Shown one piece after another: positions 1,790 to 57,147 of a stretch of DNA of 64,000 nt. Source of the stretch: Alistipes sp. (GTDB taxonomy: Bacteria; Bacteroidota; Bacteroidia; Bacteroidales; Rikenellaceae). The notes under the pieces are model-generated. The model saw only the letters and a program-made list of their open reading frames with translations, ran no database searches and was not told where the DNA came from. The DNA lies in NCBI GenBank assembly GCA_045603045.1, contig JAZULJ010000018.1, positions 1,067-65,066 on the forward strand. The letters are read 5' to 3'. Each line of letters begins with the position of its first letter. Position 1 is the stretch's first letter. A program made the position numbers and the translations under genes.

Positions 1790-2731
1790 ATGAAGCGCAT
1801 TTTGGTTTTGGGTGCCGGCGGTCAGATTGGATCTGAGTTGGTACCGTATCTGCGATCAATCTACGGTGCATCGAATGTCGTTGCTACCGATGTTAAACAC
1901 AATGCTGTATTGGCCGAGGCAGGTCCGTTCGAGTCCTTGGATGCTCTCGATGCCAAGAGCTATGCCGAGCTTGTCGAGAAGTATAAAATCGACTCTATCT
2001 TCAACCTTGTAGCCCTTCTCTCGGCTACGGGCGAGAAGAACCCACAGCTTGCCATGCGTATCAACATGGGTGCGTTGGAGAACTCGTTGGAGATTGCACG
2101 CGAGAAGAACTGCGCTGTATTTACACCCAGCTCTATCGGCGCCTTCGGCGGCGACTTCCCCCGCGACAAGACCCCCCAGGATACCGTGATGCAGCCCAAC
2201 ACCATCTATGGTGTATGTAAGGTTACCGGCGAGTTGCTCTCGAACTACTACCACACACGCTTTGGCGTTGATACACGTTCGGTACGCTTCCCCGGCATCA
2301 TCTCTAACGTAACACTCCCCGGTGGCGGTACTACCGACTACGCAGTGGAGATTTACTATGAGGCTGTCAAGGGTAATAAGTTTATCTGCAACATTGCGCC
2401 CGACGTATATATGGATATGATGTATATGCCCGATGCACTGCGTGCCACAGTAGAGCTTATGGAGGCTGACCCCTCGAAGCTCAAGCACCGCAACTCGTTC
2501 AACATCGCCGCCATGAGCTTCACACCCGAGATTATCCGCGAGGTTGTAGAGCGCCACGTGCCCGGCTTCCAGATGGAGTACAATGTTGACCCCGTAAAAG
2601 ATCAGATTTCGCGCAGCTGGCCCAACTCGCTGGACGACACATGCGCACGCGAGGAGTGGGGTTGGAAGCCTCAGTGGGACCTCGAGTCAATGACTGTGGA
2701 TATGTTGGAGGCTGTACGTCGTAAATTATAG
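1790..2731 (+). CDS. tdh: L-threonine 3-dehydrogenase, extended-SDR (NAD-dependent epimerase/dehydratase) type
   Basis: GAGGQIG Rossmann motif, YGVCK catalytic YxxxK, PGGGTTDYAV motif typical of SDR-type TDH. Confidence 0.85.
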   Translation: MKRILVLGAGGQIGSELVPYLRSIYGASNVVATDVKHNAVLAEAGPFESLDALDAKSYAELVEKYKIDSIFNLVALLSATGEKNPQLAMRINMGALENSLEIAREKNCAVFTPSSIGAFGGDFPRDKTPQDTVMQPNTIYGVCKVTGELLSNYYHTRFGVDTRSVRFPGIISNVTLPGGGTTDYAVEIYYEAVKGNKFICNIAPDVYMDMMYMPDALRATVELMEADPSKLKHRNSFNIAAMSFTPEIIREVVERHVPGFQMEYNVDPVKDQISRSWPNSLDDTCAREEWGWKPQWDLESMTVDMLEAVRRKL

Positions 2732-2747
2732 GAAGATACTATAAATT

Positions 2748-2845
2748 AGGCTTAGCATTAGCCTTGCATCAATCAAAGCCCTGAATGAGAGGTACGACAA
2801 GTACTGTCCATTCAGGGCTTTTTCTCATTTCTCATTTCTCATTCT
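2748..2845 (+). repeat. Copy 1 of the dispersed two-hairpin element (family A), probably also the tdh terminator, followed by (TTTCTCA)x3
   Basis: AGGCT/AGCCT small hairpin, then AAAGCCCTGAATG-agag-GTAC-gacaa-GTAC-tgtc-CATTCAGGGCTTT at 2775-2821; homologous to the copies at 51751-51973 and 56924-57017. Confidence 0.75.
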
Positions 2846-50159: not shown

Positions 50160-51575
50160 TTACTCGGCGATGCCATCTAAGCAGATGACACATGATACCC
50201 AACCATTCTCGGTATTGGCCGTACCAACGATGGTCTTGCCATCCTCCGAAGCACCTACGATGATAACACCATAGGGAATCTGTTCTGTAAGGTCGAGGTC
50301 ATGCTCCTCCAAGAGCCAGTCGGCAATGGGTGTAAGAGTTTCAAGGTCTTCTGACATAACATCTATGATGTACGATGTCTCGCCCATGTAGTAGGGAGCG
50401 TCGTTTATGAAGGCAATACCATCATCTGTCATAGCTGTAATCTGAGCGCCTGCGCACTTTATAAACTCGTCGGTTTTGAGGTTGTAGGCTGCTGCAAACT
50501 CGTTAGCATACCCTGTCGAGAAGTCCTTTCCCTTACCATAAGCATAGGTTCCGTTCTGCGACATACGGTTCTGACTATCACCGAGGCTCTCCAAAGGCAT
50601 ACTATTATCCTTCTTTTCGAGATGTACATACTCGAAGGGTTCATTCCATGCAGACCACACGATGCTGAACATATCTACAGAGTAGTCATAGCCAAGAATT
50701 TTGCCATCGGGAGCAATACACTTGGCAACGATGCCAATCTGTACGTCCTCAGACGCGTCGTAGGGGTTAATCTCATATGCGAGTTCACCGATAGCGGGCA
50801 TCGACAGCTCGTTGGTCTCTAAGTTATAGACGATAGGTACCATCATACCACACTGACTCGTGTACTCCGTAGTACCATACTCAAAGAACCAACCCACCGC
50901 CAGCTTACCGTCAGGAGTGATAGCATCCAACGATGCCGAGTCGAGGTTTTCGGGCGCCGAGAGGTACTTCGAGATGTCGATGTCGTGAATCTGGCCATCA
51001 ATATAGTATGCTGCCTGGCCAATGCCCGATTCGTAGTTGGTACCCACTGCCAAACCGTCATCCGATACATCCGAGAACTCCATGTTAGACACGGTGGTAA
51101 GGATATCCGTGTTAAGGTCGAGGATGAAACCCTGTCTGTCAAAAGCACCTACTACATAGCGACCGTTGTTCGAGATTGCAACTGCCGCAGCGCCATTCTG
51201 GGCATACCACTCGCGGTATGCGGGAACGATACGGCCACCGAGTGTTACCTCAACTACGGCAGCCTCCGAGCTGAGCAACGCACTCTCATTGGGCGATACA
51301 GCCTTAACATAGAACTTGTGCGTAGTAGCCCAAGCGAGGCCACGCACCACGTAGCTGGTGCCCTCAACGATTGTGGGCTCCTCCTCATTTACTGATACGG
51401 TGTAGTAGAGAGCATTCTCTACGGCCGACCATGTGAGCGTAACATTGTTGTTATCGACGAGATGTCCTACAACGGGAGTTTCGAGCTGAGGAATACCGGG
51501 CGTGGGCTCCTCGTTACATCCTGCTAAGGCAAGGAGTACAATGCCTGAGAGCAGAAGATTGAATAATTGTTTCAT
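50160..51575 (-). CDS. Surface lipoprotein: FN3 domain plus a probable 7-bladed beta-propeller
   Basis: Lipobox LAG-C; VTLTWSAVENA..Y FN3 motif; seven [S/T]xDG-type repeats (ISNNG, VSDDG, ITPDG, IAPDG, MSQNG, MTDDG, ASEDG). Confidence 0.75.
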   Translation of the reverse strand: MKQLFNLLLSGIVLLALAGCNEEPTPGIPQLETPVVGHLVDNNNVTLTWSAVENALYYTVSVNEEEPTIVEGTSYVVRGLAWATTHKFYVKAVSPNESALLSSEAAVVEVTLGGRIVPAYREWYAQNGAAAVAISNNGRYVVGAFDRQGFILDLNTDILTTVSNMEFSDVSDDGLAVGTNYESGIGQAAYYIDGQIHDIDISKYLSAPENLDSASLDAITPDGKLAVGWFFEYGTTEYTSQCGMMVPIVYNLETNELSMPAIGELAYEINPYDASEDVQIGIVAKCIAPDGKILGYDYSVDMFSIVWSAWNEPFEYVHLEKKDNSMPLESLGDSQNRMSQNGTYAYGKGKDFSTGYANEFAAAYNLKTDEFIKCAGAQITAMTDDGIAFINDAPYYMGETSYIIDVMSEDLETLTPIADWLLEEHDLDLTEQIPYGVIIVGASEDGKTIVGTANTENGWVSCVICLDGIAE

Positions 51576-51750
51576 GTTCTTAGGGTTTTATATGTATAAA
51601 ATTAGTAAGCTATTTAGTTGTAAGGCGTTGCCATAATGCTGGACAAAGGTAGTAAATTAATTGAATTTGCAAAAATACGGATGCAAAAAACGTAATTTTG
51701 GTTAGTAGGAAGTGAAAATTGTGGAGTATTAGATAACGAGAGTTATGATA

Positions 51751-51973
51751 GGTGCGAAATGAAAGTACCCTGGATGGATAGTACTTGACGTACATTCCAT
51801 TCAGCCCAATGATTGAGAGGGTGCAGATGCGCCCTTATCACAGGAAATTTCTTGTCAGAAGCCGTGAGATGTGGTGCGAAATGAAAGTACCCTGGATGGA
51901 TAGTACTTGGCGTACATTCCATTCAGGGTATCTTTTGGTTTCGTGCCGCAGATTGCGGCTTATCACAAGAAAT
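51751..51973 (-). repeat. Tandem copies 2 and 3 of the family A two-hairpin element (122-bp period)
   Basis: 54-nt core identical at 53/54 positions (51751-51804 vs 51873-51926); each copy also has a small hairpin and TTATCAC. Confidence 0.9.
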
Positions 51974-52524
51974 TATTTGAAGTAGCGATTATAAAGCCCC
52001 TCAAACCCCTTACCGTGGCGAGCCTCATCCTTGGCCATCTCGTGCACAGTATCGTGAATAGCGTCGTAGTTGTGCTGCTTGGCAAGTGCTGCGATGCGCA
52101 TCTTGTCGGCACAAGCACCACTCTCAGCATTCATGCGCTTCTCGAGGTTGGTCTTAGTATCCCATACGCAGTCGCCAAGCAACTCAGCGAACTTCGAAGC
52201 ATGCTCAGCCTCCTCGAAAGCGTAGCGCTTGAAGGCCTCGGCAATCTCAGGATAACCCTCACGGTCAGCCTGACGGCTCATTGCGAGATACATACCTACC
52301 TCGGTGCACTCGCCCATGAAGTGGTTGTTGAGACCCTCGATAATCTCGGCATTGTCAACCTTACCGTCGCCAATCTTATGCTCTGTTACAAATTCGAGAG
52401 CTGCGTCCTCCTCCTTCATCTCCTCAAAACGGTCGCTACCAACCTTGCACAAGGGGCACTGCTCGGGTGCCTCGGGACCTTCGTGAATATATCCGCATAC
52501 TGAGCAAATCCATTTCTTAGCCAT
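51973..52524 (-). CDS. Reverse rubrerythrin (rubredoxin + di-iron domain; NADH peroxidase-like)
   Basis: CSVCG...[18 protein letters not shown] and DEARHG. Confidence 0.93.
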
Positions 52525-56816: not shown

Positions 56817-56917
56817 GGAGGTCGGCGGGGTCGGCGGGGCTGGTCAGGGCTGGTGGGGGTTGGTGAGGTTGGTGAGGTTGGTGAGGTTGGTGGGGTTGGT
56901 GGGGGGTTGGAGGGGTC
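56817..56917. repeat. G-rich degenerate 9-bp tandem array (consensus TTGGTGAGG), about 11 units
   Basis: ggtcggcgg ggtcggcgg ggctggtca gggctggtg ... (ttggtgagg)x3 ttggtgggg ... Confidence 0.9.
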
Positions 56918-56923
56918 AGACAT

Positions 56924-57017
56924 GGCACGAAATGAAAGTACCCCGGATGGATAGTACTTGGTGTACATTCCATTCAGGGTATCTCTCGTTTTCGCGCCGC
57001 AGAGCGCGGCTTATCAC
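56924..57017 (-). repeat. Copy 4 of the family A two-hairpin element
   Basis: Four differences from copy 3 over the 61-nt core; GCCGC/GCGGC small hairpin and TTATCAC conserved. Confidence 0.9.
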
Positions 57018-57018
57018 G

Positions 57019-57147
57019 CTAAATTTTGAAGAGGTCGGTAAGGTATGTATCCAAAAATAACAATTCGTGGTCATCCTTAATTACATCGTTCATAAGCATA
57101 TCCTCTTCACTATACAACTGTAAAATACGACTGTCGATATCTCCCAT
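57019..57147 (-). CDS. Small acidic ORF, 42 aa (MGDIDSRILQLYSEEDMLMNDVIKDDHELLFLDTYLTDLFKI), below the ORF-track cutoff
   Basis: Hand translation; A-rich initiation region; co-oriented 73 bp after the sigma factor gene; family A element begins right after its stop. Confidence 0.55.
   Translation of the reverse strand: MGDIDSRILQLYSEEDMLMNDVIKDDHELLFLDTYLTDLFKI

Follow-up and report, generated by a model that had tools for sequence, protein, structure and literature searches.

In a 64,000-nt stretch of an Alistipes sp. genome (contig JAZULJ010000018.1 of GCA_045603045.1; the whole stretch is hereafter the window, C18:1067-65066 of the 1.73-Mb, 51-contig assembly G000), a first-pass annotation had noted four copies of a two-hairpin element behind the stop codons of unrelated genes, and had taken it for a lineage-specific mobile hairpin or a protein-bound RNA motif of the 3' untranslated region (3' UTR). 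We find that these copies belong to a family that is abundant, genus-restricted, palindromic and non-coding, and that is docked on stop codons in one orientation. The reading that we regard as likely is a genus-wide non-coding palindromic repeat which bears a terminator, docks on stop codons and turns over by recombination between its copies. The strongest evidence for turnover is the within-species comparison, where the interior of the unit is exchanged between fixed terminal boxes on a within-species time scale.

Anatomy, docking and distribution of the unit

All four copies were present in the sequence at the positions and on the strands first claimed, complete with the T-rich tail, the placement after stop codons and the tandem pair. 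A 29-nt core pattern drawn from them, GAATGNNNNGTACNNCAAGTACTNTCCAT, had four exact matches in the window and none in 100 shuffles. Four is a small part of the family: a fuzzy search of the assembly with a 35-nt core gave 68 matches, and two rounds of nhmmer gave ~162 non-overlapping units at 115 loci, which together take up 15.4 kb (0.9%) of the assembly. In G000, roughly one gene in twelve terminates in a unit. A unit is found within 300 nt of 38 of the 102 contig ends; the family thus disrupts the assembly, and the number of copies is an approximation.

Complete units measure 123-134 nt. Each opens with a 14-nt 5' box (TTTNNNGTGATAAG; in general form TTT-NNN-GTGATAAG) that abuts or contains the stop codon. 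A small hairpin comes next, then a linker and a long hairpin whose apex is GTAC-N5-GTAC; a T-rich tract and a tail follow, and the unit closes with a complementary 3' box (CTTCTGACNNNAAA; in general form CTTCTGAC-N'N'N'-AAA). When units were lined up on the apex, the boxes were present in all subfamilies. Apart from two fixed mismatches, the boxes are inverted repeats of each other; because both ends pair, the unit is one long imperfect palindrome. The parts of the element as first described therefore stand, whilst its extent does not, since both boxes had been overlooked; the exact docking on the stop codon and the inverted character of the ends had likewise been missed. All 5' or 3' boxes in G000 are part of a unit, bar one orphan 5' box. 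Many single, older units retain everything from the 5' box to the T-rich tract and have lost the 3' box, as have three of the four window copies.

The orientation bias raised at first pass proved to be a near-uniform sense orientation: a gene could be called 5' of the unit at 100 loci; in 91 of them it was co-oriented and ended at the unit start, and the nine others were mostly spurious open reading frames (ORFs) through rows of units. We tallied stop codons at the 76 loci where a frame of 80 or more codons leads into the unit. TAA abutted the box directly in 37 of them and lay 1-4 nt upstream in 16; the stop was inside the box in 13 (the TAG of a TTTAGCG variant in seven, the TGA or TAA of GTGATAAG in six) and elsewhere in the remaining 10. 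TAA is used by 79% of unit-bearing genes compared with 62% of other genes, and 'TTT' stands right after the stop in just 4% of other genes. Solo complete units have AA...TT flanks in 40 of 56 cases. Direct repeats of 2 nt (two of the 56) or 3 nt (one of the 56) were so rare as to indicate that there is no target-site duplication; for the comparison of G000 with its closest relative, G012, on this point, the intergenic DNA was too diverged (~85% identity). A separate observation concerns a DUF4465 gene in the Rikenellaceae MAG (metagenome-assembled genome) SIG174 and related contigs (L369-L372), which terminates within the box as ...TCT TTC TTG TGA; the stop and the three codons before it are the 5' box of the unit, and there is no preceding TAA.

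At 34 loci, two to five units follow one another head to tail. Strand calls were mixed in only two of these rows, both involving fragments at contig ends. Neighbours within a row are usually of different subfamilies (A, 24 units; B, 28; C, 17; D, 16; E, 13; others, 64), and there is order among them: an A-type unit came first in 22 of the 22 rows whose 5' end lies within a contig, and D and E units were mostly internal. Strict stacking, with the newest unit always beside the stop, might account for this order, but a unit-by-unit comparison with G012 gave no consistent proximal or distal match. Eight units of G000 are chimeric; their breakpoints fall past the first hairpin, at the apex or ahead of the tail.

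The family is confined in its distribution. A strict pattern scan of species-representative genomes matched many 'Alistipes sp.' MAGs (from cattle, sheep, yak, buffalo, goat and human gut) and one Rikenellaceae MAG, all else being single, chance-like matches. We then used a covariance model built from an alignment (A2) of 51 diverse full-length units from G000 and other Alistipes MAGs. It matched in 89 of 151 genomes of the genus (the other 62 being unit-free), among them two closed genomes of ~3.5-3.8 Mb, G010 and G145; many of the 89 hold at least 23 matches, and full-length scores were 130-147 bits; among 200 other Bacteroidales genomes (~167 other genera), it found weak matches of 35-50 bits in two genomes of one genus. 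This difference upholds the first-pass view of a lineage-specific, multi-copy hairpin element as opposed to plain terminators. The weak matches are full-length (G318:C27:5560-5686, G318 C51 and C52, and G177:C26:29232-29357; L348, L349, L351), belong to another Bacteroidales family and may represent a distant or analogous palindromic repeat. A phage or plasmid origin was rejected, since blastn against both collections gave no match; a loose pattern had 90 matches in viral contigs, all single and chance-like, and an exact A-type 48-mer had none in Joint Genome Institute (JGI) metagenome contigs. The family, put forward at first pass as undescribed, matches no Rfam model: at gathering scores the whole window returned four tRNAs only, and at E <= 10 the region 51650-52050 returned one chance miRNA match of 14.9 bits and nothing else.

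Pairing and turnover

RNAalifold on A2 gave a single foldback with compensatory changes in 21 of 33 pairs. On this structure, 94.9% of cells were paired compared with 77.6% after shuffling, double-change cells numbered 266 compared with 73, and the covariation score was 0.427 compared with 0.122, with none of 500 shuffles reaching the observed value. As a control, the structure slid along the alignment scored 0.05-0.07. Covariation, which the first-pass annotation had named as a means of checking the element, extends over the whole length of the unit and includes the long hairpin with its GTAC-N5-GTAC apex, which is real. The NNN of the 5' box is matched in the 3' box as CTT/AAG in 23 units, GTT/AAC in 17, GAT/ATC in three and AGC/GCT in three. 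The two halves of the unit co-evolve by Watson-Crick rules.

Pairing over the whole unit is DNA-like, with G.T (G.U) in 12 of 1680 cells (0.7%) and A.C in 32; an A.C conserved in 47 of 51 units is a G.T on the opposite strand, and G.G, T.C and A.C occur as fixed mismatches in the fold. In 48 of the 51 units, the complete sequence has its more stable fold on the strand opposite the gene (antisense versus sense, -67.5 versus -53.9 kcal/mol with RNA parameters and -35.0 versus -29.0 with DNA parameters). Of the whole unit, the first hairpin alone behaves as a sense-strand, RNA-type hairpin: it is G.U-rich and folds better on the sense strand in 37-42 of the 51. It gave no covariation signal in one alignment register because its register differs between subfamilies, and was instead assessed sequence by sequence from its minimum free energy relative to shuffles. 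The mean of -7.2 kcal/mol compared with -2.6 in shuffles (108 units, p=2e-18), obtained with many different stems, substantiates the small hairpin originally described.

The two genomes G000 and G012 share gene ends without sharing what lies there. G012 (1.79 Mb) is ~85% identical to G000 over 1.49 Mb and carries at least 78 units. A unit was detectable in G012 at 44 of 93 comparable G000 gene ends and not at the other 49, many of which hold diverged unit-like or mini forms (5' box, first hairpin and T8), the remainder having plain terminators or nothing. At the shared ends, unit similarity was 0.57 compared with 0.53 for random pairs, with flanking genes 88% identical; the gene end is conserved between the two genomes and the occupant is not. 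The 3' end of the rubrerythrin gene found in the window illustrates the wider range: G012 (99% protein identity) carries a single diverged unit, the GTAC apex is missing from the unit of G011, units are recognisable in G013, G070, G053 and G010, and a plain GC hairpin followed by a T-run is found in G076, G051, G014, G042 and most distant species.

For comparison within species, we used exact-protein look-ups with proteins of other Alistipes loci and read the matching metagenome contigs. Ten contigs encode one and the same 271-aa PanB protein. All of them have the stop CAATATTAA and the 3' box CTTCTRACAACAAA, and nine have the 5' box TTTGTTGTGATAAG, with TTTATCG in the other. Between these boxes, the interior of the first unit belonged to at least four unrelated subfamilies; the ends carried one to three units, and mini-units (5' box, a hairpin of 13-15 nt and 3' box) were present or absent. 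The pfk locus, with a 410-aa protein identical in 10 contigs, showed the same pattern and partial units besides. The panB and pfk genes differ at ~2.5-2.7% of bases between contigs, all of them synonymous, and differences were no fewer between two contigs with the same unit type than between two with different ones (22.0 versus 21.9 for panB; 32.0 versus 30.4 for pfk). Unit type is unrelated to gene distance at these loci, and identical units were found behind panB and pfk in different samples. Turnover between species and between strains is clear, and is accompanied by subfamilies and compensatory changes.

Other gene ends were quieter. Those of rplQ, gap, DUF4465 and cysS showed no length variation among few contigs, with unit sequences read for the first three only. 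At the sigma-factor locus of the window species, two related contigs carry the same unit as the window (56915..57023), and in a third the same 5' half is joined to the 3' half of a canonical A-type unit whose 3' box is intact. The unit at 2748 is identical in two related strains, bar the copy number of an adjoining TTTCTCA repeat. At the pfk locus of human-gut Alistipes, three contigs (L379, L381, L383) have 6 nt, TTTGAA, between the TAA stop and the 5' box; this resembles two extreme unit ends joined and could be the footprint of a lost unit.

The copies in the window

The features of the four window copies are collected in Table 1. Taking the boxes as unit ends places the A-type unit behind the rubrerythrin gene at 51972-51848 and its neighbour at 51847-51751. 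For the span 51848..51975, the fold is one long hairpin (-47.3 kcal/mol, z = -8.6). The first-pass annotation had described the outer 5' arm of the neighbouring copy as eroded; there is no erosion, and the unit is a chimera (class 'BCA-') whose first hairpin is B-type, whose 5' arm is C-type and whose 3' arm is A-type. Its weak fold (z = -1.5) is explained by outer arms that derive from different subfamilies.

Table 1. Units of the repeat family and adjoining genes in the window (window coordinates)
Feature	Position	Strand	Details
Complete A-type unit behind rubrerythrin gene	51848..51975	-	nhmmer 100.6 bits
Stop codon before A-type unit	51975-51973		TAA
5' box of A-type unit	51972-51959		TTTCTTGTGATAAG
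First hairpin of A-type unit	51959-51945		GCCGCAATCTGCGGC
Long hairpin of A-type unit	51928-51890		followed by T-rich tail
Apex of A-type unit	51915-51903		GTACGCCAAGTAC
3' box of A-type unit	51861-51848		CTTCTGACAAGAAA
Second tandem unit	51751..51847	-	no spacer to first unit; 3' box missing
5' box of second tandem unit	51847-51834		TTTCCTGTGATAAG
Apex of second tandem unit	51793-51781		GTACGTCAAGTAC
Diverged A-type unit behind 42-aa ORF	56915..57023	-	downstream of ECF (extracytoplasmic function) sigma factor gene
5' box of diverged unit	57023-57010		TTTAGCGTGATAAG
Apex of diverged unit	56966-56954		GTACACCAAGTAC
Old unit behind NAD-dependent epimerase/dehydratase gene	2748..2824	+
First hairpin of old unit	2748-2764		AGGCTTAGCATTAGCCT
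Long hairpin of old unit	~2778-2818		apex GTACGACAAGTAC
T-run of old unit	2819-2823
NAD-dependent epimerase/dehydratase gene	1790-2731		Pfam
Rubrerythrin gene	51973-52524	-	Pfam
42-aa ORF	57019-57147	-	after ECF sigma factor gene
Unit-adjacent ORF, 471 aa	50160-51575	-
Unit-adjacent ORF, 926 aa	53984-56764	+

In the diverged unit, a TAG inside the 5' box (57021-57019) is the stop codon of the 42-aa ORF. As the last codons and stop of this ORF lie within the box, the unit has shaped its C-terminus. The 3' box of the same unit has decayed to ..TCTGAC and runs into a CCAACC-type satellite. The old unit starts ~17 nt past a TAG stop (2729-2731); its nhmmer match is confined to model positions 29-101, neither box is recognisable, and (TTTCTCA)x3 comes next.

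Several observations on the neighbourhood may be recorded here. For the 42-aa ORF, gene calls in three further contigs of the species likewise give 42 residues, and its flank is ~90% conserved in G012. The 471-aa and 926-aa ORFs had zero Pfam matches at E <= 0.001, and an exact-protein look-up with the window rubrerythrin returned no record. Satellites near the units vary in length: the (TTTCTCA) repeat after the old unit (2819-2842) has three copies in the window and in one related contig and two in another, and the CCAACC-type 9-mer array at 56817-56917 differs in length and sequence in all three related contigs.

Elsewhere in G000, rows often end in a second conserved module, AAACGCGCTGATTAATGGCGTGGGTCTGTGGGGAG, with 24 copies of GCTGATTAATGGCGTGG. 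It sits on C2, C4, C16, C19-C21, C23-C26, C30, C32, C33, C39, C41, C43 and others, with none in the window. After it come an (AGAGTAC)n heptamer satellite, a conserved spacer, 9-mer repeats, (TTTCCGY)n and a complementary (CTGTACT)n; as the heptamer satellites are complementary, the tandem repeats of the region can pair into a second hairpin, which would be very long. Other Alistipes species have related modules (GCGCTGATTGAGGTGG with AAGGAGTTTAGTGA / CCCTAAATTCC satellites) that differ in length between strains, and G012 has satellites of its own after terminators, (GGGACTAT)-like and (GTGAAAA)-like heptamers.

Mechanism and comparison with known systems

In the reading that we favour, a unit docks, in a single orientation, on the stop codon that closes an ordinary gene, sometimes supplying the stop, and its small hairpin, long hairpin and T-rich tract would form the predicted transcription terminator or 3'-end structure of that gene. 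Units spread and replace one another, an outcome that the comparisons above show, and would do so by recombination between copies: the terminal boxes, GTGATAAG and CTTCTGAC, stay at the gene end whilst the ~95-nt interior is exchanged, and the same process would also yield chimeras, mini-units and head-to-tail rows. The Watson-Crick pairing, the stronger antisense fold and the lack of target-site duplication suggest that the substrate is folded or extruded DNA. Possible agents are recombination or replication functions of the host, acting by template switching or by gene conversion at a hairpin, or else a site-specific recombinase; involvement of a DDE or HUH transposase is disfavoured. The unit probably ends the transcript of the upstream gene, judging from the hairpin followed by a T-rich tract, from the mini forms that consist of a hairpin and T8, and from the plain terminators that occupy the site in relatives; orthologous rubrerythrin ends carry a unit in some genomes and a plain GC hairpin plus T-run in the others.

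Several points weigh against this reading. No clean pair of filled and empty sites was found within a species, and de novo insertion and the exact boundaries were thus unseen. At 14-17 nt, the boxes are short for RecA-type gene conversion, which leaves room for a dedicated enzyme. The screen covered only seven enzyme families, and as all genomes are MAGs (G000 being 92% complete), the absence of a gene is weak evidence. Shared descent of subfamilies inflates the covariation counts, though several paired positions still show three or four pair types. As for the terminator, a strict scan (at least five T in 8 nt) came up empty at 51400-52200 because the T-run is interrupted, and the mean over the 51 units is 4.5 T in the 8 nt after the hairpin, with five or more in 31.

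Exchange might alternatively be site-specific, the units acting as cassettes and the boxes, as a folded bottom strand or as a junction, forming the site of a tyrosine recombinase. The junction would be a 28-bp CTTCTGAC-AAGAAATTTCTT-GTGATAAG, and the enzyme could be the host XerC/XerD-like pair, in the manner of attC or Xer-dependent modules. Such a system would be consistent with the swapping of the interior within a species while both boxes stay, the lack of target-site duplication, a structure conserved above sequence with fixed G.G, T.C and A.C mismatches, the stronger fold opposite the gene and the fixed orientation relative to the ORF. The tyrosine recombinases of G000 are a XerD-like protein (328.9 bits), a XerC-like protein, one 427-aa integrase and one fragment. 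The unit-rich G012 has one XerC-like and one XerD-like gene as the sole recombinases found; these are two Pfam matches of the size and score of the G000 pair, a comparison made by Pfam. An integron itself was rejected: no integron integrase was found in G000, where the models gave 155, 125 and 44 bits against a cut-off of 265. Moreover, RYYYAAC/GTTRRRY boxes are not visible in the sequence, the units are scattered behind >100 housekeeping genes and form no single array, chimera breakpoints also fall at the apex and linker, beyond the boxes, and nothing links the Xer proteins with the boxes. On balance, we think cassette exchange of this kind unlikely. A broader proposal, a gene-end recombination system in which the boxes are joined on the folded antisense strand for a site-specific recombinase, possibly XerC/XerD-like, that inserts, stacks and exchanges terminator cassettes at stops, appears to us no less doubtful; if it were true, each strain would get a different set of gene-end structures.

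Mobilisation by a transposase fares worse. Terminal inverted repeats of 14-16 nt, a non-coding length of ~125 bp, high copy number and subfamilies are what one would see in a classical MITE (miniature inverted-repeat transposable element) moved in trans by the DDE transposase of an insertion sequence with the same ends, and with so many contig ends near units, such insertion sequences could be lost from the assembly. Yet the near-total sense orientation and stop-codon docking are unexpected for cut-and-paste elements, a target-site duplication was seen in just two of the 56 solo units, the variable block of the repeat covaries between the ends rather than being fixed, and no gene in G000 is flanked by a pair of boxes. 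DDE_Tnp_1 was absent from G000, G012, G011 and G014, and rve was found only in G076 among nine unit-rich genomes; the MITE explanation seems very unlikely. Nor did the other candidates, TnpB (only in G153 of the nine), IS110 (none in the unit-rich genomes screened) and resolvase (none in G000, G012, G091 or G153), track the element. The HUH partner suggested at first pass, a RAYT or an IS200-IS605 TnpA, would act on single-stranded hairpins of elements akin to repetitive extragenic palindromic (REP) sequences and REPINs. Hairpins with conserved unpaired bases and a conserved loop, the strand-specific fold, the lack of target-site duplication and the resemblance of the whole unit to an inverted doublet are in line with this. 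The rows, however, run head to tail instead of alternating, a unit is roughly four times as large as a REP, and, besides the scarcity of TnpB, Y1_Tnp (PF01797) had zero matches in G000, G008, G011 and G012, which all carry the element, and occurred in one of the 25 genus genomes searched compared with 14 of 16 other-family Bacteroidales genomes; the search also detected such genes in 6 control genomes. We regard a REP-like origin as highly improbable.

The same low standing falls to a functional 3' UTR RNA (a protein-binding or stability element, or a small RNA source) copied only for its usefulness, the other possibility of the first-pass annotation. The first hairpin could play such a part: it is G.U-rich and of sense-strand type, and it starts 12-13 nt past the stop, within reach of a terminating ribosome; the apex loop NNCAA and the 5' box also persist even in old copies. 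For the unit as a whole the proposal is weak, as its pairing is Watson-Crick and stronger antisense, its 3' arm lies past the T-rich tract that is the likely terminator, Rfam has no match for it even at E <= 10, and swapping of subfamilies behind one gene within a species speaks against an RNA function specific to the gene.

Alistipes is a major gut genus, and with about one gene in twelve ending in a unit, the family probably shapes transcript ends and gene expression genome-wide. It also breaks short-read assemblies, as the contig ends beside units attest, and the covariance model could be used to annotate units and to flag assembly breakpoints in Alistipes MAGs. Explaining the family would reveal either a new use of host recombination functions or a new mobilising enzyme. 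We found no description of such a family in literature on Alistipes or Bacteroidetes together with MITEs or REPs, and in a 2024 review of MITEs in prokaryotes no word starts with 'Bacteroid'. Nor did we find the combination of stop-codon docking, single orientation and within-species exchange of subfamilies described for REP, MITE, BOX/RUP/SPRITE or attC.

Individual traits do recur in known systems. An integron attC site is an imperfect palindrome 3' of an ORF, with fixed orientation, conservation of structure over sequence, and a folded strand opposite the gene. The Alistipes units resemble it in form only (fixed orientation, structure over sequence, fixed unpaired bases, antisense fold and no target-site duplication); they lack an integron integrase (in G000) and the R-box consensus, are scattered behind housekeeping genes, and their rows have no ORFs between units. 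REP sequences of Proteobacteria are 20-40 nt long, alternate in orientation in bacterial interspersed mosaic elements (BIMEs) and co-occur with a RAYT gene. The REP/BIME and REPIN-RAYT systems of Proteobacteria, reportedly described by Nunvar et al. in 2010, are like the Alistipes family in comprising high-copy extragenic palindromes at gene ends, with mosaics and conserved unpaired hairpin bases; the Alistipes units differ in being 123-134 nt long, in their head-to-tail rows and in having no Y1 gene in four unit-bearing genomes. With MITEs, the units share terminal inverted repeats. Correia elements have TA duplications and insert in either orientation, whereas the Alistipes units have no duplication, a single orientation and stop-codon docking. 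In size and ends, the units are close to Correia/NEMIS of Neisseria and ERIC/RU-1 (127 bp) of enterobacteria, which are ~100-155 bp with terminal inverted repeats, and which likewise form an end-to-end long stem-loop, are rich in stop codons and are co-transcribed with their neighbours (Delihas 2008, PMC2229807). The Alistipes rows are modular, as is BOX. Among candidate structured RNAs of human microbiomes, Fremin & Bhatt 2021 (PMC8040213) describe palindromic, terminator-like Bacteroidetes motifs and Alistipes-dominated motifs, for example a 63-nt motif with 146 instances; some of these may overlap with the family.

SPRITE (2011, PMC3049150) is likewise an interspersed repeat that is small, non-coding and restricted to a lineage; it has a long stem and a T/U-rich tract, is enriched near gene 3' ends and between convergent genes, has been proposed as a co-opted terminator, and has neither a target-site duplication nor a cognate insertion sequence established (PMC3049150). 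It has ~30 copies, with AAAA/TTTT termini only and no stop-codon docking reported. Compared with it by description rather than by sequence, the Alistipes family is larger, at ~160 units, has covarying 14-nt boxes with the stop abutting or inside the unit, is nearly always in the sense orientation, and exchanges its subfamilies within species.

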